Shown one piece after another: positions 5,961-40,876 of a stretch of DNA of 42,985 nt (position 1 is its first letter; each line of letters opens with the position of its first letter). Made by a program: the position numbers and the translations under genes. Source of the stretch: Candidatus Vogelbacteria bacterium (lineage in GTDB: Bacteria; Patescibacteriota; Minisyncoccia; Phycocordibacterales; XYD1-FULL-46-19); the NCBI GenBank assembly GCA_903864935.1, contig CAIPHT010000014.1, forward strand, positions 1-42,985. The letters run 5' to 3'. A model generated the notes under the pieces. That model made no database searches. It had not been told where the DNA came from and was given only the letters and a program-made list of their open reading frames with translations.

Positions 5961-6746
5961 ATGATTTTTGATGGCAAAAAACTAGCCGAGGAGATTAAGT
6001 CCGAACTCCGCTTGAAGTTAAAAGCTAAAAGCCAAAAGCTTAGTTTGGCCGTTGTCTGGGTAGGAGAAGATCCGGTGTCTGAACGTTATGTTGAGCGCAA
6101 GAAAAAATTTGGTTTGGATATCGGAGTCGAAGTTGTCGTTCATGAATATCCATCTGACGTCTTAGAAGAGGATTTGATAGAAGAAATAACAAAACTAAAT
6201 AATGACTCTAATGTCTCGGGAATTATTGTTCAGCTCCCACTTCCTGATGATATTGATCAACAAAAAATTCTTAATTTAATTTCACCTGATAAGGATGTTG
6301 ATGCTCTCAGCCAAGAGGCGAGAGTCTTGTCTCCAACGGTGGGAGCAATTAAAGAAATTTTAGAGCGGAATAATGTTGAACTTGCGGGTAAAAAAGCCGT
6401 GGTGCTTGGTAAAGGTAAGCTTGTGGGTAAACCCGTTGCCATTTGGCTCACAGGGGAAGGGGCGAGTGTCTCAATTATTGATTCAAAAACGGCTGATTCT
6501 GACAGCCTTTTAAAACAAGCCGATATTATTGTGAGTGGGGTGGGCAAGCCCGGCCTAATTACTCTAGACAAGATTAAAGATGGTGTTGTTTTGATTGACG
6601 CAGCCACATCTGAGCAGAATGGCAGTCTGAAGGGTGATGCTGATCCCGCCTGCGCCGACAAGTGTTCACTTTTCACGCCTGTCCCCGGTGGTGTGGGTCC
6701 GCTTACTGTTGTGATGCTTTTCAAAAATTTACTTGAACTTAATTAA
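5961..6746 (+). CDS. folD: Bifunctional methylenetetrahydrofolate dehydrogenase/cyclohydrolase
   Basis: GIIVQLPLP, KDVDA, GKGKLVGKP, ADIIVSGVGKP and TPVPGGVGPLTV motifs. Confidence 0.95.
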   Translation: MIFDGKKLAEEIKSELRLKLKAKSQKLSLAVVWVGEDPVSERYVERKKKFGLDIGVEVVVHEYPSDVLEEDLIEEITKLNNDSNVSGIIVQLPLPDDIDQQKILNLISPDKDVDALSQEARVLSPTVGAIKEILERNNVELAGKKAVVLGKGKLVGKPVAIWLTGEGASVSIIDSKTADSDSLLKQADIIVSGVGKPGLITLDKIKDGVVLIDAATSEQNGSLKGDADPACADKCSLFTPVPGGVGPLTVVMLFKNLLELN

Positions 6747-6761
6747 GCTTGGTGCTACTTT
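6733..6761 (+). promoter_or_regulatory. Sigma70-type promoter for orphan gene 6854
   Basis: TTGAAC-N17-TACTTT with extended TG; overlaps the end of folD. Confidence 0.5.
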
Positions 6762-6853
6762 TTAATTAGATTCTTTGTCATAGGCTGGGGGAGACCCTCG
6801 GCCTAAAACGTCGGAGGGGAGACCCCTCAATCGACAGAAAAGGAGATGTTCTC

Positions 6854-7510
6854 ATGAATAAAGGATATGACGTTCTTGCTTTGTGGAGGGCTCTTTCTGG
6901 GTGGGAATCGAGGCTCGTGACCACCGGTAAGTTTACCCTGGAAGATCGTCAGAGAGAGGCCGTCAACCTTCTTCGGATTGTTGTAGAGAGGGATATCCTT
7001 CCCTCCCTGAAGAATGACCCGCTTGTTCCTTTCTGGTCTGCCAACATCGTCAAAACGAAGAGGGAGTTTGTCGAGTTCGTTTCTCTCAAGGGCTTTATTC
7101 CCGAGGGCGAAGATTGGTCATCTTGGTTCAAGAGGGTTGAGGTTGATCCAATGAAGGAAACGGCGGATTTCCGGGGAATTTACTTCTTCTTGGACGACAA
7201 CGACGGCAACTTCGCTTGGGGTGTGACTTCCGGCGGAAAGGTTATCGTTTGCCGGGCTCACTTCATGTCCCACCCGACGGAGGATTTTTGCACCGTTATC
7301 AAGGATTGTGAAGTCCGAGGTGTTGGTTGGGATGAACTCGAAAAAGGGGATTTCCCTGTTGTCGAAATGATTGAGTGCCTTGACGGTTATCTCGAAGGTC
7401 TCGTTGCTCGTCGTGAGGAATTACTCAGAAAAGCGAAAGACCGGCGGCAACCGATCAAAGAGGCGTTAGACTTTTTCAGGCTGAAGGTTCAGGCCTCTGG
7501 ATTGCGGTGA
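6854..7510 (+). CDS. Orphan hypothetical protein (218 aa)
   Basis: Long ORF preceded by AAAAGGAG (6838-6845) and followed by a terminator; no family recognised. Confidence 0.7.
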   Translation: MNKGYDVLALWRALSGWESRLVTTGKFTLEDRQREAVNLLRIVVERDILPSLKNDPLVPFWSANIVKTKREFVEFVSLKGFIPEGEDWSSWFKRVEVDPMKETADFRGIYFFLDDNDGNFAWGVTSGGKVIVCRAHFMSHPTEDFCTVIKDCEVRGVGWDELEKGDFPVVEMIECLDGYLEGLVARREELLRKAKDRRQPIKEALDFFRLKVQASGLR

Positions 7511-7524
7511 TAAAATCTCTTCTC

Positions 7525-7552
7525 AAAAGCGGGCCCCACGTGGCCCGCTTTT
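7525..7552 (+). terminator. Intrinsic terminator, possibly bidirectional
   Basis: aaaagcgggcc-ccacgt-ggcccgctttt, an 11-bp stem. Confidence 0.8.
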
Positions 7553-7593
7553 CTTGTATATGAGAGATGGAAAAATTTTGATAAAATATAATT

Positions 7594-8067
7594 ATGACTT
7601 TTTATGAATACTTAATTTATTTCTGTGCTGTAATTTTGCCTTGGGTCATGGGCGGGGGATTGATTGTTTATTTATTTTTCACCAAGAAAAAAATTAGCAC
7701 TCTTCGTTTGGTTGGCCTGTCATTTTTTAGCGCGCTCCTGGCTTGGTTTCTCGCGAGTTTGGTTAAGTATAATATTCCGAGCCCCCGACCATTTGAAGTC
7801 TACGCTAATCTTAAACCACTTTTTACAACGGCTCATGGCGACGCTTTTCCTTCTGGCCATGCGACTTTCTTGGGAGCGTTCGCGGTTGGGGTTTTCTTGC
7901 AAAGAAAGAAACTTGGGATAATTTTTATCGTTGGGGCTGGTCTTGTCGCTATTGCCCGGGTCTTAGCTAATGTCCACTGGCCAGCCGATGTAATTGCTGG
8001 GCTCCTGTTTGGGGCCTTAGTAGCGGTTGTTGTGGGTGGGGTTTATCACAAAGTCTATTCGAAATAA
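7594..8067 (+). CDS. PAP2-family phosphatase (candidate undecaprenyl-pyrophosphate phosphatase)
   Basis: K-x6-RP (KYNIPSPRP), FPSGHA and ARVLANVHWPAD motifs in a membrane protein. Confidence 0.88.
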   Translation: MTFYEYLIYFCAVILPWVMGGGLIVYLFFTKKKISTLRLVGLSFFSALLAWFLASLVKYNIPSPRPFEVYANLKPLFTTAHGDAFPSGHATFLGAFAVGVFLQRKKLGIIFIVGAGLVAIARVLANVHWPADVIAGLLFGALVAVVVGGVYHKVYSK

Positions 8068-8075
8068 CTACCCCC

Positions 8076-8112
8076 CCCCGCCACACCTCGGGCTCACTTG
8101 AGGTCTGGCGGG
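8076..8112. repeat. 37-nt palindromic REP-like element, copy 1
   Basis: 36/37 identical to 10399-10435; CCCGCC...GGCGGG arms. Confidence 0.85.
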
Positions 8113-8127
8113 GGAAAGGGGGTGGGT

Positions 8128-8155
8128 TTGATTTTCCCCCTTATTTTGCTAGAAT
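8128..8155 (+). promoter_or_regulatory. secD promoter
   Basis: TTGATT-N16-TAGAAT with TGn extension, 8 nt before ATG. Confidence 0.65.
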
Positions 8156-8163
8156 AGCCCCAT

Positions 8164-9474
8164 ATGACTAAGACACGTTTTTGGGCCATTATCCTGCTTT
8201 TAGTGGGTATTTTGATTGGCTATTTTAATTATTATTCAGAAGTTAATCCCCAGTGGAGCTTCTATCGTCCGTTTAAGTTGGGTCTCGATTTATCAGGAGG
8301 AAGTCGCCTCACCTATGAGGCTGATGTCTCTAAGTTGAACCCGGCCGATGTCTCTGATGCCATGTCATCCCTCCGCGAGGTGATTGATCGTCGTGTTAAT
8401 GCTTTTGGTGTTTCTGAGGCTATTGTCCAGACCGAGAGCTCGGCTCTATCTGGTACTGTCCACAATCGTTTGATTGTTGAATTACCAGGGGTCACTGATG
8501 TTAAGCAGGCTGCCAATATGATTTCTGAGACGCCACAGCTTGAGTTTAAGGTTGAAGGCGCTACCTCGACGGCGAACCTTGATGCCTCAAGCACTCCATG
8601 GTTGGCGACTGGTTTGACCGGACGTTATCTTAAGAAGTCCCAAGTTTCTTTCAGCCAGAATTCTTTGTCTCCTTCGATCTCTATTGAGTTCAATAGTGAT
8701 GGAGCCAAACTCTTTGATCAAATTACTAAAGCTAGCGTTGGCAAACGTGTAGCAATCTTGCTCGATAATCAGATTATCTCGGCGCCGGTTGTGCGGGAAG
8801 AAATTCGCGATGGCAAGGCGGAGATCAGCGGTCAATTTACTGTTACCGAAGCCAAGGACCTCGTTCGCAATTTAAACCTTGGAGCTTTACCTGTCCCAAT
8901 TAAGCTAGCCTCCACTCAGGTGGTCGGCGCAACCTTGGGTACCGAAGCGGCCAAGAAGGGGGTCGAAGCTGGCATCATTGGCCTTCTTCTTGTCGCCATC
9001 TTCATGTTGCTTTGGTATCGTTTGCCCGGTCTGGTCTCGATTGTCGCCCTATCTATCTATGTGATGATAATGTTGGCCATTTTCAAATTAATGCCTGTGA
9101 CTCTAACGGCCGCTGGTATGGCTGGTTTCATCCTCTCCATTGGTATTGCTGTCGATGCGAATGTTCTTATCTTCGAGCGTTTCAAAGAAGAGTTGGCTAA
9201 GGGTAAGTCTCTCCACGCGGCTGTTACTGAAGGTTTCTCTCGCGCTTGGCTCTCTATTCGTGACTCCAATCTCTCCAGTATTATCTCGTCCATTATCCTC
9301 TTCTGGTTTGGGACAAGCATGATTAAGGGTTTCGCCTTAACTTTAGCTCTGGGTATCATTGTTAGTATGTTTACCGCTGTGGTGGTCACTCGAACTTTCC
9401 TTCTAGCGCTTGGCTTCCGGCAGTCGAACCGGCTAACCCGCTTCTTATTCGGTAATGGTTTCTTCAAAAATTAA
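8164..9474 (+). CDS. secD: Protein translocase subunit SecD
   Basis: LGLDLSGG, RRVNAFGVSE, GALPVP, VGATLG, DANVLIFERFKEEL and IRDSN motifs. Confidence 0.97.
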   Translation: MTKTRFWAIILLLVGILIGYFNYYSEVNPQWSFYRPFKLGLDLSGGSRLTYEADVSKLNPADVSDAMSSLREVIDRRVNAFGVSEAIVQTESSALSGTVHNRLIVELPGVTDVKQAANMISETPQLEFKVEGATSTANLDASSTPWLATGLTGRYLKKSQVSFSQNSLSPSISIEFNSDGAKLFDQITKASVGKRVAILLDNQIISAPVVREEIRDGKAEISGQFTVTEAKDLVRNLNLGALPVPIKLASTQVVGATLGTEAAKKGVEAGIIGLLLVAIFMLLWYRLPGLVSIVALSIYVMIMLAIFKLMPVTLTAAGMAGFILSIGIAVDANVLIFERFKEELAKGKSLHAAVTEGFSRAWLSIRDSNLSSIISSIILFWFGTSMIKGFALTLALGIIVSMFTAVVVTRTFLLALGFRQSNRLTRFLFGNGFFKN

Positions 9475-9478
9475 ATAT

Positions 9479-10393
9479 ATGTTTATTATCAAACATCGTC
9501 GTTATTTCTTTGTTTTCTCCCTTGTTCTTATCCTTGTTTCTCTATTCTCTTTAATGACCTATGGACTTAACTTAGGTATTGATTTTAAGGGTGGTTCGAT
9601 TATCGAAGTTGGCTATCTCGCTCAACGTCCCGCTCTTGATCAAATTAAGACGAGCCTCGCCCCGCTTAACCTCGGAGCTTACACCTTGCAACCGGTAGGG
9701 GATAAGGCCGTTTCGATTCGTCTTAAGGAATTAGATCAGACTGGCAAAGATTCTCTAATGAAAGCCTTGTCGCTCAATGGACAAGCTCCCGTTAAAGAAA
9801 ATCAGTCAAGCACCATCGGCCCTTCTCTTGGTAAGGAGCTCGAGACTAAGGGAATGATTGCTATCGTAATTGTTGTCTTGCTCATTATCATCTTCGTTGC
9901 CTTCGCCTTCCGCTCTGTCTCTTATCCAATCAAATCGTGGAAGTATGGGGTGGCCGCAATTATCGCTCTCGTTCACGATATCATTATCGCCGTTGGGGCA
10001 ATGTCGCTCTTAGCTCACTTTTTTGGGGCTGAGGCTGACGCCTTGTTCCTAACGGCCTTGTTGACCATTCTTGGTTTGTCAGTTAATGACACCATTGTTA
10101 TTTTCGACCGTATCCGTGAGAACTTGAGACTTAAGATTAGCAATAGCTTCGAAGAGGAGGTGGGGATTAGTTTGGGTCAAACCATTATTCGCTCAATGAA
10201 CGTTACTTCGACTATCGTTATTGTCTTGGTGGCCATGCTTCTCTTTGGTCCAGTTTCGATCAAATACTTCACCGCCGTCTTGATTGTTGGTATGATCTCG
10301 GGTGCCTACTCGTCCATCTTCGTGGCCGCCCCTGTTCTTGTTGAATGGGAAATGTGGTCCCGCAATAAAGCGGTGGCTAAAATTAAACGCTAA
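9479..10393 (+). CDS. secF: Protein translocase subunit SecF
   Basis: LGIDFKGG, IGPSLG, ALVHD, SVNDTIVIFDRIREN and GAYSSIFVA motifs. ATG 9479, just after the secD stop, preferred. Confidence 0.96.
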   Translation: MFIIKHRRYFFVFSLVLILVSLFSLMTYGLNLGIDFKGGSIIEVGYLAQRPALDQIKTSLAPLNLGAYTLQPVGDKAVSIRLKELDQTGKDSLMKALSLNGQAPVKENQSSTIGPSLGKELETKGMIAIVIVVLLIIIFVAFAFRSVSYPIKSWKYGVAAIIALVHDIIIAVGAMSLLAHFFGAEADALFLTALLTILGLSVNDTIVIFDRIRENLRLKISNSFEEEVGISLGQTIIRSMNVTSTIVIVLVAMLLFGPVSIKYFTAVLIVGMISGAYSSIFVAAPVLVEWEMWSRNKAVAKIKR

Positions 10394-10398
10394 AAAAT

Positions 10399-10435
10399 CC
10401 CCGCCAGACCTCGGGCTCACTTGAGGTCTGGCGGG
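10399..10435. repeat. 37-nt palindromic REP-like element, copy 2
   Basis: cccgccagacctc...gaggtctggcggg, a perfect 13-bp stem immediately after the secF stop. Confidence 0.85.
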
Positions 10436-10442
10436 AGAAGGG

Positions 10443-10470
10443 AAAAAATGGCCTATTTAGGCCATTTTTT
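10443..10470 (+). terminator. Bidirectional intrinsic terminator after secF
   Basis: aaaaaatggcct-attt-aggccatttttt. Confidence 0.8.
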
Positions 10471-10509
10471 GGTGGTTGAGGGTATCTGGGGGAGGGGGCG
10501 AAATTGAGG

Positions 10510-10537
10510 TTGACGGGCTTATTTTTTCCTGTATAAT
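10510..10537 (+). promoter_or_regulatory. 16S rRNA promoter
   Basis: TTGACG-N16-TATAAT about 210 nt upstream of the 16S. Confidence 0.8.
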
Positions 10538-10576
10538 GGCCTAGTCATCGGTTTTTCAACTGGTGGCTATTTAGAC

Positions 10577-10589
10577 AGTCCTTTGACAA
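10577..10589 (+). promoter_or_regulatory. boxA-like rRNA antitermination element
   Basis: AGTCCTTTGACAA in the rrn leader resembles the boxA consensus (GnTCTTTGAAAA type). Confidence 0.5.
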
Positions 10590-10701
10590 TCGAATCACGC
10601 AACAATCAAAATTAATCCTGCGAAGCTTTAATAAAGCGAAGCAGGGCAAACCAGTGCAAATTAAATTTTTTCAGAAGAAAACCCCGCCACGGCGGGACAA
10701 G

Positions 10702-10724
10702 TATTTTTTCTTCTGTTCCGTTCT
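10702..10724 (+). other. 5' arm of the 16S processing stalk (pairs with 12384-12406)
   Basis: tattttttcttctgttccgttct is the reverse complement of agaacggaacagaagaaagaata over 23 nt, with one G-U pair. Confidence 0.85.
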
Positions 10725-10745
10725 ATTAAGCTAAATCAAATTGCT

Positions 10746-12239
<1,494 letters not shown>

Positions 12240-12383
12240 TTGAACGGTCTTGTCGCAAGATAAGACAATTGGCGATTTCTCTCCTCAAGAGAGAAGCAGG
12301 TGATGATTCTATTTTCACCAATTGAATTCTTTTCGAAGGAATTCAAAGAACAATGAATCTGAGTTCTATCTCATTAATCTAGA

Positions 12384-12406
12384 AGAACGGAACAGAAGAA
12401 AGAATA
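12384..12406 (+). other. 3' arm of the 16S processing stalk
   Basis: Complementary to 10702-10724. Confidence 0.85.
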
Positions 12407-12432
12407 TTTTCTCTGGAGTTAGTTTTGATAAC

Positions 12433-12460
12433 AAAAGAGGCCTTAATAGGGGTCTTTTTT
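12433..12460 (+). terminator. Probable terminator of the 16S-only transcript
   Basis: aaaagaggcc...ggtctttttt stem (two G-U pairs) with a T tract. Confidence 0.6.
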
Positions 12461-12509
12461 GCGTTGTTTTTAAAGCCCTGCCCCGTGGGAGAGAAGCGAC
12501 TCTACGGGG

Positions 12510-12537
12510 TTGACAAAGGCTGTGGTTATGCTATAAT
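12510..12537 (+). promoter_or_regulatory. Consensus sigma70 promoter for orphan gene 12609
   Basis: TTGACA-N16-TATAAT with TGn extension; preceded by the hairpin ccccgt...acgggg (12481-12509). Confidence 0.85.
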
Positions 12538-12608
12538 AGAGGATGGAAGGGTATTAAATGTTCTTAAAACCAGGCTCGCTTAGCGGGCCAAGCAGAAGGA
12601 GAAGAGAG

Positions 12609-12890
12609 ATGAAGAGTTTCCTTAAAGGCCTCGCGGCCTTCGTGGCTTGTTGCGTTGTCTTCGTTGTCCTGGTTGCCGTTCTTGGCGGGCCAGTCCTGGG
12701 CTTTTTCCAGGATGAGCCGGTCATCTATGTCAAAACCTCGACGGGCGAAGCCTTCGAGGCGAAGACCTACGACCGGGAGGGGAAGGAAGTTTGGCATTCG
12801 GCCAGCTGGGCTCGGGCTCACCGAAACGAATGCCGGGCAGAATCCACCGGCAACGGCTATAAGGTCCACTCAGCAGAGTGGGTGGATTGA
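12609..12890 (+). CDS. Small exported or membrane-anchored orphan protein (93 aa)
   Basis: MK plus a hydrophobic N-terminus; AAGGAG at 12596-12601; strong upstream promoter. ATG 12609 preferred over 12558. Confidence 0.6.
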   Translation: MKSFLKGLAAFVACCVVFVVLVAVLGGPVLGFFQDEPVIYVKTSTGEAFEAKTYDREGKEVWHSASWARAHRNECRAESTGNGYKVHSAEWVD

Positions 12891-12906
12891 CTCCTATCTA
12901 CTGACC

Positions 12907-12934
12907 GCCCCTCAGCCTCTCGTGAGGTTGGGGC
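12907..12934 (+). terminator. GC-rich hairpin after gene 12609 (no clear U tract)
   Basis: gcccc(tc)agcctc-tcgt-gaggttggggc. Confidence 0.35.
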
Positions 12935-12996
12935 ATGCGGAACTTCGAGGCGCTCAGTTCGGTTTGTATACCGGGCTGGGCGCTTTATTGTTTAGG

Positions 12997-13025
12997 TTGA
13001 AATTAGAGGCGTTTTTTGATAGGAT
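12997..13025 (+). promoter_or_regulatory. Promoter for the tRNA-Ile locus
   Basis: TTGAAA-N17-TAGGAT with TGn extension. Confidence 0.55.
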
Positions 13026-13106
13026 TTAGATTGTCCCTCCTCGTTCGCCCTGGCGAACTTCGTCGGGACGCTAAATTTTTATAGTCGCTCCGCTTCTTAA
13101 AAATTT

Positions 13107-13164
13107 GCGCGTGTAGCTCAGGCTTGCCCGCCTTAGGCGGGTGAAGTTAGGCGCGTCACTGATA
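13107..13164 (+). pseudogene. Degenerate 5' half of tRNA-Ile with a palindromic insertion in the D-loop
   Basis: First 16 nt are identical to the tRNA, followed by the insert cttgcccgccttaggcgggtgaa, then GTTAG-GCGCGTCACTGATA, ending at position 37. Confidence 0.85.
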
Positions 13165-13226
13165 TAATCAGTATACTGTCGGTTCGCTCGTTGAAAATCA
13201 AAAGATAGGCCCTTAGTGCTTTTGGT

Positions 13227-13303
13227 GCGCGTGTAGCTCAGGTGGTTAGAGCGCGTCACTGATAATGACGAGGTCGTAGGTTCGAGTCCTACCATGCGCA
13301 CCA
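13227..13303 (+). tRNA. tRNA-Ile(GAT) with encoded CCA
   Basis: Full 77-nt cloverleaf: acceptor GCGCGTG/CATGCGC, D stem GCTC/GAGC, anticodon stem CGTCA/TGACG with loop CTGATAA, T arm GTAGG-TTCGAGT-CCTAC, then ACCA. Confidence 0.98.
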
Positions 13304-13346
13304 AGTGCAGTAGGCATATCTTTTGATTTTAACTCGATGCCAACAG

Positions 13347-13385
13347 TAATGACGAGGTCGTAGGTTCGAGTCCTACCATGCGCAC
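13347..13385 (+). repeat. Exact 39-bp copy of the tRNA-Ile 3' half (att-like direct repeat)
   Basis: taatgacgaggtcgtaggttcgagtcctaccatgcgcac is identical to 13263-13301. Confidence 0.95.
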
Positions 13386-13392
13386 TAGGGGG

Positions 13393-13423
13393 AAAACAGT
13401 CTCTGTTTAGGGTACTGTTTTTT
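13393..13423 (+). terminator. Intrinsic terminator after the tRNA locus
   Basis: aaaacagt...actgtttt stem with a T tract. Confidence 0.7.
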
Positions 13424-13425
13424 GT

Positions 13426-13454
13426 TTGACTTAATTAAATATAAGTGGTACTTT
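13426..13454 (+). promoter_or_regulatory. Promoter for orphan gene 13525
   Basis: TTGACT-N17-TACTTT with TGn extension. Confidence 0.65.
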
Positions 13455-13510
13455 CGAAGCAGACTGCTTGTTAGGCTTTGTGGCCTGATAAAAATAGAAT
13501 CCAACCCTTG

Positions 13511-13521
13511 AAGGAGGTGAT
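13511..13521 (+). promoter_or_regulatory. Full-length Shine-Dalgarno sequence
   Basis: AAGGAGGTGAT is the exact complement of the canonical anti-SD AUCACCUCCUU; ATG at 13525. Confidence 0.8.
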
Positions 13522-13524
13522 AAG

Positions 13525-14001
13525 ATGAAGATTGCCATGATTAGCAAAAACAACTTTCTCCCTGGTCGGGGGGAGGGTTGGCCCAGAATTGTTAATGGTC
13601 ACGAAGTTTACCTTATTCAGGGTCGCCCTGAAACTCCCGAGAGTCTTCGTCGAGACATGAGAAGGGCCGCTGATTATCCTCGAGTCAGAAGTGTCGACTC
13701 GAGACTTGAGGCACGTAGAGACTGGGAATCCCTTAGTCGACTCCTTCCCACACTGGATAGAGTGATTGTCTATGTTGGTACCGATGGGTCTGATGAGAAC
13801 ATCGACCTTGCTGCGAAGCATTGCGGTACGAGGGTCCCTGTGACCTTCGTCTTCTGTGATTGTAATCTTGACCTCAAGAAACAGCTTCTTGCGAGTAACG
13901 GATTTGACCGGGAGAAGTTTGTCCTATGTCTTTGCGGCGGGAAGGAGAAGATGGAGGAGATTTACGAAAGGTTCATAGAGACAGGGGAACTCCCTGTCTA
14001 A
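13525..14001 (+). CDS. Orphan alpha/beta protein with two CxC motifs (158 aa)
   Basis: Own promoter, SD and terminator; FVFCDCN and VLCLCGG motifs. Confidence 0.75.
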   Translation: MKIAMISKNNFLPGRGEGWPRIVNGHEVYLIQGRPETPESLRRDMRRAADYPRVRSVDSRLEARRDWESLSRLLPTLDRVIVYVGTDGSDENIDLAAKHCGTRVPVTFVFCDCNLDLKKQLLASNGFDREKFVLCLCGGKEKMEEIYERFIETGELPV

Positions 14002-14004
14002 CAG

Positions 14005-14044
14005 CAGCCCCTGGCGGATACCCATCCGCCAGGGGCTGGTTTTT
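14005..14044 (+). terminator. Strong intrinsic terminator
   Basis: Perfect 15-bp stem cagcccctggcggat-accc-atccgccaggggctg followed by GTTTTT. Confidence 0.9.
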
Positions 14045-14077
14045 GTCTCTTCGGGGACTTATGCTAGAATGCTTTAT

Positions 14078-17000
14078 ATGGAAATCAAATCTAGATTTGA
14101 ATTTTTTAGACGAGATAATATTACTTATCTTGATAGTGCCGCGACAACTCAAGTTCCTGATCAAGTGATTCGATCAGTGGAACAAGTTTTGCAATACCGA
14201 GGCAACCCAAGTCGTAGCGCTCATTTAGTTTCTCTCCGCAATGAAGAGTTGCTAGCTGAGGCCAGAGCTAATATTGCCAAATTTATTGGGGCTGAAGCTG
14301 AAGAGATCGTTTTCTCTGGTAATGCTACTGGGGCCTTAAATCTAGCTGTTGATTCTATTGCTGATCTGATTAAGAAAGATGACGAGATAATTATCTCCGT
14401 GGCTGAACATAATTCTAATATGTTGCCTTATCTTAAGTTGGTAAAAAGAGGGGCGAATATTCGAATTGTCGGGATCAAAGATGGGGTAGTGAGTCTTGAT
14501 GAAATTAAGAAGACCCTAAACGACAAAACAAAAATTGTCGCCATTGGCCATTGTTCCAATGTTTTGGGCAATATTAATGATGTCGAAGAAATTGGGAAGA
14601 TTGTCAAAGATCATAACAAAGACATTTTTTATTTTATTGATGGGACCCAAGCCGTGGCGCATCTCCCCGTTGACGTGAAGAAAATTCAAGTTGATTTCTA
14701 TGCTTTCTCCAGTCACAAGATGTATGGTCCCGATGGTGTGGGTGTTTTGTTTATTAAAAAAGATATTCATCATTTATTAACTCCTACTCAAGTTGGCGGG
14801 GGGACAGTGAAGAACGTGGCTGTTACTTATGGTCAAGAAAAGGATATTATTTCTCCTGAGTATCATCAATCTCTAATTACGTTAGAAGGGGGGACACCGA
14901 ACACTTCAAATATTATTGGTCTTTCAAGAGCGGTTTATTTTATCCGTTCTCTTGGGTTAGAAAATATCAGGAAGCATGAATTAGAGTTATTAGAATATCT
15001 TATTGAGGGATTAAAGAAGATAGAGGAAGTTATCGTTTTTGGCCCTGAAGATTTTACTAAAAAAATTGGCCTAGCTTCTTTTGGCTTAAAAGACCATTCC
15101 GTAAAAGAGCTCGGTGATTATCTTGGCCGTCAAAAGATTTGTATTCGTTATGGTTCCCATTGCGCTTTTCCTTTGGCCGATAAATTGGGCCAAGAGAGTC
15201 TGCGTATTAGTTTTGGGGCTTATTCTGATATTGAGGACATTGATCGAATATTGGGCGAAATAAAACTCTTTTTTGATAAGAAAAAAGGTCTGATAAAAAA
15301 TCCTAATTTAGAAATTCTTAAGAATAAAATTTATTACAAAAATACTTTTATCACTCAATCGATAGGGTCTATTTTGGATAAATTAAGATCTGCTATATAT
15401 AATCCAGCTGAGACAGAAGTTGTTGTTATGGGTGGTCATTTCTTGGCTATCCCGGACATGCAAGATAATAAATTTTGGCCCAGTATCAAGCCGATGCTAC
15501 CAGAGAGGCTTCATGGTTTACTTGAAGAGTTCGGGATGACTTCTTTCCCCCTATTTTCCTGGGAGATGGCTTGCCAGACTGTGTCGAAACTTAAAGAACA
15601 AGGCGTTAGGGCCAAGCTTCTTATTGTGGCTAACGATACCACTGGGATTAACGAATTGAGACTTTCTAGCGCTAATAAAAATTCTCGGACAGCCGAATCT
15701 TATCGAGATGAATTACTGGCTCTGTTTGCTGGGGATGACGGAATACCCAAAGAATATGTCGAGATCTTAAAGAAATACAAATTAAGCAAAAAGGACCTTA
15801 TTAAAAGTGGTAAGGACTGCTTTATGCGGGAGACTATCTTACGCGCTAATTTCAAGAAATTTATCAGCGGAAATAAGAAATTCTTTGATGGGGTTATAAA
15901 TTATTCGGCCGAGGAAGGGGAGAACATTGATGTCGCTATTAATATTCTTGATAACCAGCAAATAAAGACTTGTAGCTTCCAAACCTTTAATTCTAAGACG
16001 GGAGGAAGATTTTGTATCGCTGAAGTCGCCGAATTGATGGCGGAGCTATTTGGTAAGGCCCCAGATGTTAACTTCGATTTCTTAAAAGAAAAAGTTAAGG
16101 AACCAAAAATTGAAGGCAAACATAAAATTTTTGTCATGTATTCTCCGGCCATGTGTGATAACGCTATCACAAGAGGAGGGGAACTCTACACGAAGGTGTT
16201 TTTGCAAGAAAAAGGTGTGGGTTCCTTTAAATTCTTTAATATACCATTAGGCCCTAATGCTGAGAGAGATCTTGCGATAGGCACTGAGATGAAATATATT
16301 TCAGATAAGGATTCGCTTGAGGTCTTGAATGTTGAGACTGAGCCAAGTTTTGCTGATCTGTGGAAGATTACTGAATATAATCTTCTCTATAATAGTAGCG
16401 CTTATGCTGATGAGGTAGAAAGTGTTTTTGAGAAAATTGGTATCAATAAAAATTCTAAGATATTGGACACTTGTGTCGGCCCTGGCTTTTTCTCGACCGA
16501 ATTACTGCAGCGAGGCTATAATTTAAGTACGGCTGATATTAGCGAAGAGACAATTAAACCATTTTATAAAGGTCTAGAGGAACTTGGGATTGAACATAAA
16601 GTTACCAAGTCTGCTTGGCTAGATTTGCCGAAGAATTATACTAAAGAATCTTTTGATATCCTCTTTAATCGTGGAAACTCGTTTATTTATGCCGCTGGCG
16701 GCTGGAATGAGGAACTTCCTGTAAACAAGGAGAAGTCGTTAGAAATTTTCTCGCAAACCTTGAAGATTTATTATGACTTACTAAAACCAGGAGCTTATCT
16801 CTATATTGATAAGTTTAGAGACTCAGAAATCCCCGACAAAAAAGTTGCGGCCAGACTAGAGATTACGGATTCTAAAGAAGAAAAGGATGTCATGTTTTTA
16901 GTAGAAAGACGCCCTGAAGAAAATACACGTTTTGCCCAATTGTCCTTGCGTGATACCTCTGATAATAAGGAGAAAATGATGTTGACGGGGTTGGTCTATG

Positions 17001-17113
17001 ATCTCAGTGAGGGAGAAATGGAGGATTTGTTAAAGAATGTCGGTTTCAAAAAGGTAGACAAATTAAGTCTTAAAGAAGAAAGGCATTTCGTTGTTTGGTT
17101 GGCGCAAAAATAA
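14078..17113 (+). CDS. Three-domain fusion: group II (SufS/CsdA-like) cysteine desulfurase + unknown domain + class I SAM methyltransferase
   Basis: YLDSAATTQ, EHNSN, DGTQ, SSHKMYGP (PLP Lys) and RYGSHCA (catalytic Cys); C-terminal LDTCVGPG and NRGNSF. ATG 14078 preferred because 14069 overlaps the -10 box TGCTAGAAT. Confidence 0.88.
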   Translation: MEIKSRFEFFRRDNITYLDSAATTQVPDQVIRSVEQVLQYRGNPSRSAHLVSLRNEELLAEARANIAKFIGAEAEEIVFSGNATGALNLAVDSIADLIKKDDEIIISVAEHNSNMLPYLKLVKRGANIRIVGIKDGVVSLDEIKKTLNDKTKIVAIGHCSNVLGNINDVEEIGKIVKDHNKDIFYFIDGTQAVAHLPVDVKKIQVDFYAFSSHKMYGPDGVGVLFIKKDIHHLLTPTQVGGGTVKNVAVTYGQEKDIISPEYHQSLITLEGGTPNTSNIIGLSRAVYFIRSLGLENIRKHELELLEYLIEGLKKIEEVIVFGPEDFTKKIGLASFGLKDHSVKELGDYLGRQKICIRYGSHCAFPLADKLGQESLRISFGAYSDIEDIDRILGEIKLFFDKKKGLIKNPNLEILKNKIYYKNTFITQSIGSILDKLRSAIYNPAETEVVVMGGHFLAIPDMQDNKFWPSIKPMLPERLHGLLEEFGMTSFPLFSWEMACQTVSKLKEQGVRAKLLIVANDTTGINELRLSSANKNSRTAESYRDELLALFAGDDGIPKEYVEILKKYKLSKKDLIKSGKDCFMRETILRANFKKFISGNKKFFDGVINYSAEEGENIDVAINILDNQQIKTCSFQTFNSKTGGRFCIAEVAELMAELFGKAPDVNFDFLKEKVKEPKIEGKHKIFVMYSPAMCDNAITRGGELYTKVFLQEKGVGSFKFFNIPLGPNAERDLAIGTEMKYISDKDSLEVLNVETEPSFADLWKITEYNLLYNSSAYADEVESVFEKIGINKNSKILDTCVGPGFFSTELLQRGYNLSTADISEETIKPFYKGLEELGIEHKVTKSAWLDLPKNYTKESFDILFNRGNSFIYAAGGWNEELPVNKEKSLEIFSQTLKIYYDLLKPGAYLYIDKFRDSEIPDKKVAARLEITDSKEEKDVMFLVERRPEENTRFAQLSLRDTSDNKEKMMLTGLVYDLSEGEMEDLLKNVGFKKVDKLSLKEERHFVVWLAQK

Positions 17114-17131
17114 GAGATTAGACAAATAATT

Positions 17132-17935
17132 TTGGAAGATACAAATAGCAAGAAAATTTTAGAAATACATGCCAACCCAACCTTAGATGAGGTTTGGGAT
17201 TTATGTGTAAGGAATTTCCTTTATGATCAAAAAAAGTATGTGAACGAAGTACTAGAAATTTTTGCTCGACTTGGGATAACCAAAGAATCAAAGATCGCTG
17301 ATGTTAGTGCTGGCGGGGGATTTCCCGCTCTTAATCTTATTGCTTTGGGCTACAAGGTGGATTGTTTTGATGGCTTTGCCACCGACTTATTTGATCAAAA
17401 TGCCAAAAAAGAGGGGCAAGATGTGACATGTAAAAAGGCTCTTTGGGAGGAACTCCCTGAGCTGGTTTCTCCTGGCGAGTATGATTTTGTTTTTTGTCGA
17501 GGCAATTCATTTATTTATGCTGGCGGGGGTTGGTCAGAAACATCCGGTTTTGATATTGAGAAGGTTAGAGCTGATTATATTAAAACGGCCAAAATTTTTG
17601 CCGGGATGTTAAAGGCCGGTGGCTATATGTATATAGATAAATTCAAAGATAGCGAACTTGGGTATAGAGAAAAACTTGCCACAATAAAAGTTGGGAGCAA
17701 CCTTGAGGACTTAGTATTTTTTTCAGAAAGATCCCCTGAAAGTAAGTTAAGAAAGGCTTCTGTCCAAAGAATGGCTGGTGGAGATGTAACTAACTTTGAG
17801 GTAAAAATTACTTATGATCTATCAAAAGAAGAATTAATTAATTTTTTGAAAGAGGGAGGATTTTCTGATGTTGAGGTTATTAATTCTGAGGTCCCCGAAG
17901 AGAAGCATTTTGACGTCTGGTTGGCAAAAAAGTAG
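17132..17935 (+). CDS. Class I SAM-dependent methyltransferase, glycine/sarcosine N-methyltransferase-like; paralog of the upstream C-terminal domain
   Basis: IADVSAGGG motif I and FCRGNSFIYAGGGW; TTG start. Confidence 0.82.
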   Translation: MEDTNSKKILEIHANPTLDEVWDLCVRNFLYDQKKYVNEVLEIFARLGITKESKIADVSAGGGFPALNLIALGYKVDCFDGFATDLFDQNAKKEGQDVTCKKALWEELPELVSPGEYDFVFCRGNSFIYAGGGWSETSGFDIEKVRADYIKTAKIFAGMLKAGGYMYIDKFKDSELGYREKLATIKVGSNLEDLVFFSERSPESKLRKASVQRMAGGDVTNFEVKITYDLSKEELINFLKEGGFSDVEVINSEVPEEKHFDVWLAKK

Positions 17936-17949
17936 CCATCTCTTAGCTT

Positions 17950-17978
17950 TTGGCCTCTTTCTTGTCTTGTGCTAAAAT
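17950..17978 (+). promoter_or_regulatory. murD promoter (leaderless geometry)
   Basis: TTGGCC-N17-TAAAAT with TGn extension, 6 nt before ATG. Confidence 0.65.
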
Positions 17979-17984
17979 GCCTTT

Positions 17985-21486: not shown

Positions 21487-21732
21487 ATGAGACACATTAT
21501 TTGGCGCAATCGAGCCAGTGCGATTCTAGGTGTTTTTGTCATGCTGATCCCTTTTACTGGTTTCCCAGAGATTATCAGGGATTCTCTCGTCGTCTTATCG
21601 GGGTTCTTAATTGCCCTTTTTGGTTTTTATCATAGCTCGTCTAATTATGCCCTTGTCGAGGTTGAGGAGGCACACCACCACGCCAAAAAAGGAGACTCTA
21701 GAACCAATGAAGAAACATCATCTCTCGGTTAG
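21487..21732 (+). CDS. Small two-TM membrane protein
   Basis: Two hydrophobic segments with LIPFTGFP; ATG 9 nt after TGCTATAAT. Confidence 0.65.
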   Translation: MRHIIWRNRASAILGVFVMLIPFTGFPEIIRDSLVVLSGFLIALFGFYHSSSNYALVEVEEAHHHAKKGDSRTNEETSSLG

Positions 21733-39541: not shown

Positions 39542-39549
39542 TAACCGCT

Positions 39550-39588
39550 ATTCTAGCTGATAGGTCAGAAGGTGTCAACGGGTGTCAA
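39550..39588 (-). promoter_or_regulatory. Promoter and candidate operator of the HTH/wzx glycan operon
   Basis: Minus strand reads TTGACA-N17-TAGAAT-N8-ATG. There is a second TTGACA 10 nt upstream and CTGA-N4-TCAG in the spacer. Confidence 0.8.
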
Positions 39589-40796: not shown

Positions 40797-40876
40797 AAAC
40801 GGTTTGAGCATAACACGATTTTGTCGTCTTTACCACCTTTTTATTCCTTGAAAATCTGTGTTATATTAGAGCCATT

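Follow-up and report, generated by a model that had tools for sequence, protein, structure and literature searches.

The question raised by this locus is how genes come to carry Shine–Dalgarno (SD) sites in a genome whose 16S rRNA lacks the anti-SD sequence that would pair with them. SD:anti-SD pairing is the textbook rule for bacterial start-site choice and, to our knowledge, lineages without an anti-SD have been assumed to have dropped SD sites altogether. The locus is a 43-kb stretch (contig CAIPHT010000014.1, 42,985 nucleotides; hereafter the window) from Candidatus Vogelbacteria, an uncultured member of the Parcubacteria/Paceibacteria in the Candidate Phyla Radiation (CPR), with lake-water metagenomes as its source. 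It holds cell-envelope and polysaccharide genes, folD, secDF, 16S rRNA and tRNA-Ile; 23S rRNA is absent from the window. Among these genes lie three short SD-bearing units, cassettes 1, 2 and 3, built around genes 6854, 12609 and 13525 (open reading frames, ORFs, are named after the position of the start codon). A conserved, position-specific SD signal was found to survive in this anti-SD-less lineage, on a defined class of genes.

The favored explanation, held at roughly even odds, is that the cassettes are autonomous leadered single-gene transcription units, each with promoter, structured leader, SD, ORF and terminator. Their products would be accessory proteins in a lineage of Paceibacteria (Parcubacteria) from which the anti-SD has been lost. 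They would occupy three insertion-prone slots of an otherwise conserved backbone, namely the folD|secD junction, the 16S–tRNA-Ile spacer and the tRNA-Ile|murD junction. Their ages would differ, cassette 2 being old, cassette 1 patchy and cassette 3 having arrived in a 4.7-kb insertion beside a rearranged tRNA-Ile. The AGGAG elements would be genuine initiation signals under selection, serving a minority of leadered mRNAs, with core genes leaderless or stop–start coupled. Gene flow from SD-using Patescibacteria would keep adding SD-led genes.

SD-led units and a 16S rRNA gene lacking the anti-SD

The 16S rRNA gene (10746-12239, plus strand) has no anti-SD. Its 3' end reads GGAUUUAUUUCAAA and terminates ...GGTCGTGGAT|TTATTTCAAATT, where the bacterial norm is GGATCACCTCCTTA, and the tail GGAUUUAUUUCAAAUU contains no CCUCC. 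Canonical pairing of an SD with the resident 16S tail is excluded, as the initial annotation had stated. The tail is a trait of the lineage. Similar ones were seen at loci L012, L019, L083, L097 and L100, and an exact-pattern scan recovered tails of this type from at least 119 species representatives of GTDB, including Kaiserbacteria, Nomurabacteria, Zambryskibacteria and Paceibacteria. The anti-SD motif is known from only 48% of Parcubacteria, its absence overlapping the group without uL1 (PMC9297842), and Campbellbacteria and Wolfebacteria are listed as lacking both CCUCC and SD binding (PMC10783764). Loss of the anti-SD together with SD scarcity in part of the Parcubacteria has thus already been published (PMC9297842, PMC10783764), and the 16S of the window is in exactly that state.

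Most of the 38 window genes start in other ways. About 21 are coupled to the upstream gene through an overlap or a gap of no more than 18 nt. About 11, first in their operons, can be read as leaderless, since their -10 box (mostly TGnTAnAAT) ends 6-11 nt upstream of the ATG; leaderless-type promoters lie, for example, at 7560-7593, 8128-8163, 14043-14077, 17950-17984, 39542-39570 and 40840-40876, among others. AGGAG or GGAGG was found 4-12 nt before the start of four genes (6854, 12609, 13525 and folD), with about 0.3 expected by chance per 38 genes. Only the three cassettes combine such a motif, 7-8 nt before the ATG and so within the 4-10 nt of a canonical SD-led gene, with a long intergenic leader; the predicted leaders of 63-85 nt set them apart from the leaderless class, in which the -10 ends about 6-9 nt before the start and there is no 5' untranslated region. 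In the window, SDs are almost confined to these units. The caveats entered beforehand hold: the AGGAG of folD falls within the last codons of the gene before it, and that before 21707 is there because it falls inside a small ORF (21487-21732). This ORF of 81 hydrophobic residues has a leaderless-type promoter with TATAAT 9 nt before its ATG and overlaps the likely start (21707) of a DUF4015 gene by 26 nt.

All three units have the promoter, leader, SD and terminator ascribed to them from the sequence, the promoters of cassettes 1 and 3 being weaker. These two promoters match 8 of 12 consensus positions plus the extended TG; they were read directly from the sequence and fall below the promoter-scan threshold. 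On the plus strand, hairpins close each unit at 7525..7552 (11 bp, flanked by A and T runs), 12947..12986 (terminator-like) and 14005..14038 (an intrinsic terminator with a 15-bp stem followed by GTTTTTG). The higher GC of the cassettes, asserted earlier by eye, holds when computed: 0.504, 0.582 and 0.497 for genes 6854, 12609 and 13525 versus 0.355-0.471 in the other genes. GC at third codon positions (GC3) is 0.566, 0.681 and 0.503, respectively, versus 0.31-0.49 in the 35 others, with gene 13525 exceeding secDF only marginally. Pfam and PHROG gave no match for the three proteins and an Rfam-type search of the leaders found no known RNA family. The cassettes share no repeat beyond their terminators and a promoter module common to cassettes 1 and 3. 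A scan of Joint Genome Institute metagenomes with SecF found no close relative, the best match being 50% identical.

Could the units be chance purine runs before ORFs that are not genes, or products of a chimeric contig? Orf12609 is overlapped by long ORFs in two other frames, and the AlphaFold models of orf6854 and orf13525 (pLDDT 46 and 55) are too poor to use, Foldseek returning only generic Rossmann-like matches with E > 0.007. Four SD genes were seen where about 0.3 were expected, one of them with an 11-nt perfect SD; orf6854 and orf13525 have conserved homologues, and for orf12609 the start and the N-terminal anchor are found again in relatives. A chimeric assembly was rejected since independent assemblies agree, and every junction is tiled at even depth by these and by Logan contigs. 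This explanation is scarcely credible and largely refuted.

Retention of the cassette 2 SD and the lineage-wide signal

Cassette 2 follows the 16S rRNA gene. Its promoter (12510..12537, plus strand; TTGACA, 16 nt, TGcTATAAT) is a perfect extended one, matching 12 of 12 positions, and leads into a leader of about 64 nt (12544..12608, plus) that holds the SD AAGGAG (12596-12601, plus), 7 nt before the ATG at 12609. Orf12609 (12609..12890, plus; 93 aa, GC3 0.68) encodes a small protein with an N-terminal membrane anchor.

In the nearest relative the region 12429-12589 carries 18 substitutions and 4 indels, all of them outside the -35, the extended -10 and the final 22 nt, which contain SD and ATG. 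The -35 and -10 boxes are unchanged around a spacer with 5 substitutions. Positions 12590-12611 are identical while 12557-12589 holds 5 substitutions and 4 indels, and the 112 nt around the invariant -35, -10 and SD plus ATG hold 16 differences. The alignment ends exactly at the ATG of orf12609, where the ORF of the relative begins ATG TTG AAG AAA GCG GTT TTG GTG GTT GTC GTT (MLKKAVLVVVV), an N-terminal hydrophobic anchor.

Closer GTDB species were drawn from the tail scan: L249 and L258, with a MurD-like protein 75% identical to that of the window, and L284, L274 and L178 (69-72%). Four of these five (L258, L249, L284 and L178) have, after the 16S trailer and terminator, a TTGACA-16-TGnTATAAT/TATACT promoter, a leader of 24-57 nt and an SD (AAGGAG, AAAGGAGGTGAT, CAGGAG and AGGAAGGG, respectively) before the ATG of a 65-91-aa ORF with an N-terminal membrane helix. 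The conserved tRNA-Ile promoter/hairpin and tRNA-Ile follow. The leaders are otherwise unalignable. The exact SD motif is present in four of five species, and the off-spacing controls put its chance rate at about 1.5% per gene. The counterpart proteins of L258, L249 and L178 are 33-41% identical to each other and share with orf12609 only the motif PV(I/V)..(D/K)(S/T).T. A protein search found no detectable sequence homologue of orf12609, which has positional counterparts in five species (the nearest relative and the four above). The 16S–tRNA-Ile spacer is usually 0.6-3 kb, and under a lenient test 16 of about 60 spacers hold a plus-strand SD-led small ORF.

Cassette 2 is an old, vertically conserved resident of the slot after the 16S. 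The initial annotation had viewed all three units as acquired plug-ins and had named vertical conservation at the locus as the finding that would speak against this; for cassette 2, that is what the recurrence of promoter, SD and membrane ORF in the nearest relative, L258, L249, L284 and L178 amounts to. Since its SD is kept across anti-SD-less species whose leaders have diverged, it is probably not just a leftover of gene transfer, and descent from an SD-using donor cannot be the whole story.

The signal extends beyond this gene. In 124 pooled loci without anti-SD (864 kb), AGGAG or GGAGG preceded the ATG of ORFs of at least 60 aa at spacings of 4, 5, 6, 7 and 8 nt in 19, 25, 30, 37 and 20 cases versus a background of about 9, and reverse-complement and shuffled-purine control motifs were flat or weak. 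Crude ORF calls gave 68 SD-led ORFs among 869 (about 8%), with 15 and 9 in the off-spacing controls. Per kb, the SD excess reaches about one third of the level of Firmicutes-type loci gauged in the same crude manner. The leaderless signature is also present, TGnTAnAAT ending 6-8 nt before an ATG in 37 of its 242 occurrences. SD-led ORFs exceed the locus median GC3 by 0.056 versus 0.002 for the rest (p = 3.5e-6). The off-spacing controls are shifted too, by a non-significant +0.03 to +0.04, and part of the effect is therefore motif composition bias. Pfam families are lacking for 8 of the 10 most GC3-shifted SD-led ORFs.

These data bear on a relic account, in which all three cassettes are recent imports from SD-using, GC-richer donors and the SD is functionless and has not yet decayed. 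The raised GC3 of the cassettes (0.50-0.68 versus 0.31-0.49) and the lineage-wide GC3 shift with its mostly Pfam-less extremes are what it expects. The share of the shift that comes from the motif search itself lessens the force of this agreement, and an excess one third as large as in Firmicutes-type loci is much for relics alone. The AT-rich polysaccharide locus of the window is likewise accessory, yet has no SD. Cassette 2 is vertical and its SD is kept in at least five anti-SD-less species with leaders diverged beyond alignment. We regard import alone as possible but doubtful; cassettes 1 and 3 supply further points in its favor.

Cassettes 1 and 3 and their surroundings

The genes FtsW, GT4, Bac_transf, folD, secD, secF and 16S form a backbone kept across Parcubacteria, and folD adjoins secD in many of them. 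Cassette 1 lies in this interval. Its promoter (6733..6761, plus; TTGAAC at 6733-6738, 17 nt, TGcTACTTT with the -10 at 6756-6761) overlaps the last folD codons with its -35 and spacer. The leader of about 85 nt (6768..6853, plus) contains two hairpins with a repeated GGGGAGACCC (6788-6797 and 6816-6825; fold z = -4.0) and the SD AAAAGGAG (6838-6845, plus), 8 nt before the ATG of orf6854 (6854..7510, plus; 218 aa, GC3 0.57). Only one homologue was found among 5.8 billion proteins, P0002 (ENA contig ERZ1426829), which is 70% identical and has the same folD–orf–PAP2 synteny.

A 7.7-kb contig of the nearest relative, evenly covered at about 40x in runs X6-X9, lacks 6738-7611. Only 26 nt take their place, and in them the folD stop TAA directly abuts the GTG start of PAP2; cassette 1 therefore interrupts two coupled genes. 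Both of its junctions carry an imperfect direct repeat of 20 nt, the first 8 nt of which (ACTTAATT) are identical. In L082, whose folD is 59% identical, the same slot holds an SD-led (GAGGAG-7-ATG), Pfam-less ORF; its similarity to orf6854 is marginal (E = 0.017-0.03 over 20 residues) and it was counted as a positional analogue only. In L232 a mere 164 nt separate folD from secD. As judged from these comparisons, cassette 1 occupies a variable slot patchily, and its absence from the nearest relative agrees with recent import.

Two further features of the interval were observed. L082 has on its minus strand a 263-aa ORF (6972-7763) of GC3 0.78 in a locus of 44% GC, between PAP2 and secD, and this insertion appears to mark the folD–secD interval as a hot spot for foreign genes in this clade. 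In the window PAP2 and secF are both closed by a GC-rich hairpin of 44 nt, CCCCGCCAGACCTCGGGCTCACTTGAGGTCTGGCGGGG (8076-8119 and 10399-10442, copies 93% identical). The nearest relative has it on three or more further contigs, and runs X1 and X2 contain variants with a loop insert of about 30 nt; it looks like a dispersed terminator-like repeat.

Cassette 3 has a promoter at 13426..13454 (plus; TTGACT, 17 nt, TGgTACTTT) and a leader of about 63 nt (13461..13524, plus) with a hairpin and the SD AAGGAGGTGAT (13511-13521, plus). This SD is an 11-nt perfect complement of the canonical tail, and its GGAGG ends 7 nt before the ATG of orf13525 (13525..14001, plus; 158 aa, GC3 0.50). Cassettes 1 and 3 share a 5' module (6733-6800 and 13426-13490) made up of the exact 10-mer ACTTAATTAA, which covers -35 and spacer and occurs at no other place in the window, a TGnTACTTT -10 and, with the similarity continuing into the leader, a CTTGT..TAGGCT hairpin opening. 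The module suggests a common regulator or a common source. Its TTAATTAA is palindromic.

Orf13525 belongs to an uncharacterized CPR-wide family. It seemed an orphan in a word-indexed search because that search was too insensitive and missed the whole family; an exhaustive search retrieved 121 cluster representatives of about 150 aa at E < 1e-3, with phmmer E-values from 2e-20 downward. Family motifs are Y-N..NGW, LDxVVxYVGxxGSE, FVxCxC and CxCGG, and Y83, G85, C111, C113, C137 and G139 are invariant in the 39-sequence alignment A2. These 39 members have no Pfam match and a profile search found no PDB relative. All named sources are Patescibacteria. The label 'orphan' applied earlier to the three genes holds only loosely: orf6854 has its one homologue and orf12609 its positional counterparts, and the 121 clusters take orf13525 out of that class.

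Members of the family in SD-using Patescibacteria (L163 and L165) carry AAAGGAGG(TGA) sites, and the member is GC-richer than its own locus in 7 of 8 loci. In L167-L170 a member heads a 6-kb run of nine small Pfam-less genes (GC3 0.52-0.74), most with AAGGAGA sites; the run borders on a TrmB-type regulator gene and on core genes without SDs (GC3 0.36-0.42). The TrmB-family gene is accompanied by four repeated promoter/operator modules, TTGTCAnnnnnnTTGACAA...TAGnAT, which precede the nine genes (L167, 5310-12308, and also L168-L170), and TrmB genes neighbor orf13525 homologues in L163 and L171 as well. The leader motif ATCAACCyyyAAAGGAGGTGA of L163 was judged to be the ordinary SD context of an SD-using genome. 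In an Uhrbacteria locus (L162, 5891-7026) the homologue is bracketed by three hairpin elements of about 75 nt, GCCAGACCTCTCGTC...GACGAGATGCCTGGCAGAGCCTGA, spaced 600 and 460 nt apart, and the locus looks like a small cassette array.

The surroundings of cassette 3 are themselves variable. The 4.7-kb stretch from tRNA-Ile to murD (13304..17984, plus), which comprises a tRNA 3'-half copy, cassette 3, a fusion gene of 1011-1014 aa and a 267-aa gene, is absent from L258, L178, L284, L274 and L249, where none of its genes has a counterpart. In L258, L178 and L284 no more than 1-8 nt separate tRNA-Ile from the murD start codon, compared with about 250 nt in L274. In the first three, 3' processing of the tRNA would leave a leaderless or nearly leaderless murD mRNA; in the window, murD is served by a leaderless-type promoter of its own. 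An import is the best reading of cassette 3, whose family appears to circulate among Patescibacteria. Its place in an insertion missing from five relatives and the SD sites of its family in SD-users fit the account of functionless imports. The earlier proposal of acquisition from SD-using donors is partly supported: cassettes 1 and 3 are present in some relatives and absent from others, and the family of gene 13525 has its sites in SD-users. It is not supported for the vertically inherited cassette 2.

The fusion gene (14069-17113, 1014 aa) joins a class-V aminotransferase resembling cysteine desulfurase to about 400 aa without family and an S-adenosylmethionine methyltransferase. ATG 14078 is probably its true start because of the leaderless signature at 14043-14077. 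In another assembly of the same organism the gene is split into a 581-aa call and a second ORF further downstream, which may be a frameshift or stop polymorphism.

The tRNA-Ile region (13108..13385, plus) is rearranged, with a 5' half at 13108-13160, an intact gene at 13227-13303 and a 3' half at 13347-13385. A 25-nt hairpin replaces the D-loop in the 5'-half copy; the 3'-half copy is 39 nt long and 100% identical. The halves, both of which are present in the nearest relative, flank a 186-nt insert carrying the intact tRNA-Ile between inverted repeats. The 'tRNA-Stop' that ARAGORN places at 13296-13385 is spurious, being due to the half copy. In this region a TGnTATAAT box arises at the junction CACTGATA|TAAT, and the tRNA-Ile promoter TTGAAA-17-TGnTAGGAT is conserved (window 12997-13070; L258, L284 and L178), with a leader that opens with a CCCUCCUC hairpin. 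L249 has an inverted tRNA-Ile with a partial copy.

Such an arrangement raises the possibility that the cassettes, or at least cassette 3, are cargo remnants of an element integrated at tRNA-Ile. The 39-nt direct repeat of the tRNA 3' half with its 5'-half companion, the divergence of the nearest relative exactly after the 3'-half copy, the 4.7-kb insertion relative to five species and the inverted copy in L249 can all be taken in its favor. The repeats, however, are only 84 nt apart with cassette 3 downstream of both, the remainder of the insertion is rich in AT and looks native (GC3 0.33-0.36), and cassettes 1 and 2 are left unexplained. No integrase, transposase or phage gene was found in the 43 kb. 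A mobility route of the kind suspected at the outset likewise found nothing to attach to, integrase, transposase and attC-like repeats being absent from the window. An integrative element is an improbable source of the cassettes.

Possible readers of the SD and known systems

If the SDs are used, something must recognize them. One candidate is a hidden anti-SD, a CCUCC in a 3' extension of the 16S or in another RNA such as the CCCUCCUC hairpin of the tRNA-Ile leader (13033-13070), which would restore canonical SD function; GGAUUUAUUUC is the mature 16S end expected without an extended tail. The 16S 3' trailer (12240-12414, plus) is structured, its processing-stem arm 12381-12399 pairing with 10707-10724, and it is 100% identical in the nearest relative. 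Positions 12230-12414 fold into four hairpins (z = -3.97), a domain that the new 16S tail closes by pairing, and UCUCUCCUC lies within the trailer at 12276-12284. The tRNA-Ile leaders of the window, L258 and L284 begin with GUCC(C)UCCU(U/C), with CCUCCUU in L258. In both places, however, the motif sits within a stem. A different hairpin occupies the trailer position in L012 and L019, and in L178 the tRNA-leader stem is CCCACC...GGUAGGG, keeping the structure and not the CCUCC. Among trailers in general the motif has chance frequency and no fixed position. A hidden anti-SD is very unlikely. As a separate observation, AATTGG(T)CGAT 3' of the first trailer hairpin is kept as far as Kaiserbacteria.

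Two sources of a substitute were tried and rejected. One was an anti-SD relocated to the trailer, given the chance frequency (about 0.15 per tail) and variable position of its motifs; the other was an anti-SD formed by the new tail, whose complements (GGAATT..ATTAAT for the major type, GAAATAAAT for that of the window) show no positional peak before starts.

The data establish the anatomy and composition of the units, their place as moron-like autonomous genes in three variable slots of a conserved backbone, their presence or absence in relatives, the lineage-wide positional signal and the retention of the SD in cassette 2 counterparts; that the SD is read at all is an inference. Several results weigh against selected initiation signals. 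CCUCC or CUCCU occurs in 15 of 116 tails (the 243 nt after 16S) with about 17 expected and no fixed position, and no partner RNA for the SD was identified in the trailers or via the complement of the new tail. The sole CCUCC of the 16S body is internal, and, the window being 43 kb and the genomes metagenome-assembled, a second 16S copy with an anti-SD may lie elsewhere. The homology of orf12609 to the proteins of L258, L249 and L178 is weak (hhalign E = 0.004 over 13 columns). The ORF calls of the pooled loci are crude, and foreign origin would also predict the GC3 surplus of SD-led ORFs.

On balance, a functional reading is needed because of cassette 2 and the size of the lineage-wide signal, and the relic reading fits the GC shift and cassette 3. 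A mixed picture, in which a selected AGGAG-type element on leadered mRNAs is combined with gene influx from SD-users, is held with moderate confidence. The element may work through pairing or through a protein that recognizes it, or it may hold the start region free of structure. More tentatively, and with a chance well below even, SD-dependent initiation would persist for leadered mRNAs in these Paceibacteria through another rRNA segment, a separate RNA or a protein. Translation would then have two tiers, with core genes leaderless or coupled, and the SD-led genes mostly accessory and often secreted or membrane genes, including the strongly promoted small membrane protein after the 16S. Functional sites would imply an unrecognized SD-reading route, and gene finders with SD scoring switched off would mis-call the starts of the SD-led class. 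Relic sites would readily mark and date the entry of genes from SD-using donors into CPR genomes.

In architecture, the phage moron is the nearest analogue. Hendrix and colleagues are said to have described morons as autonomous promoter–gene–terminator units of deviant composition between prophage genes. The cassettes resemble them in having their own promoter, a single ORF, a factor-independent terminator, deviant GC and insertion between genes that are adjacent in relatives, as where cassette 1 splits the folD–PAP2 pair. Unlike morons, they lie in a cellular chromosome backbone flanked by folD, PAP2, secDF, 16S, tRNA-Ile and murD with no phage genes nearby, and cassette 2 is vertically conserved.

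The duplicated tRNA 3' segment, with strain-specific DNA right after it that is absent from related species, recalls tRNA-gene-associated islands. Those differ in having an integrase and repeats that bracket the island, whereas here the repeats are 84 nt apart and there is a 5'-half copy too, which implies an intact tRNA nested inside a split older copy. Small single-gene units of unassigned function and variable content at a fixed site are also typical of integron cassettes, but the units of the window have their own promoters and terminators and no attC-like site, integrase or array. As horizontally acquired ORFans, with atypical composition and patchy distribution, cassettes 3 and 1 fit and cassette 2 does not.

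For regulation, the closest analogue is the Bacteroidetes, in which the anti-SD is present but occluded and SDs are uncommon, strong regulatory ones persisting in a few genes such as rpsU (cited in PMC10783764). An SD-poor background with a small set of genes with strong SDs is common to both, although the CCUCC of the Bacteroidetes is kept in the 16S and can be exposed, while here it is absent from the 16S gene. In the literature no report was found of a retained position-specific SD class, or of a conserved SD-led gene after the 16S, in genomes of this kind. The published SD-scarce Parcubacteria were treated as essentially SD-free; here a positional SD signal is found in about 8% of ORFs, concentrated in leadered, GC-richer and mostly uncharacterized genes and conserved across species in one gene family.

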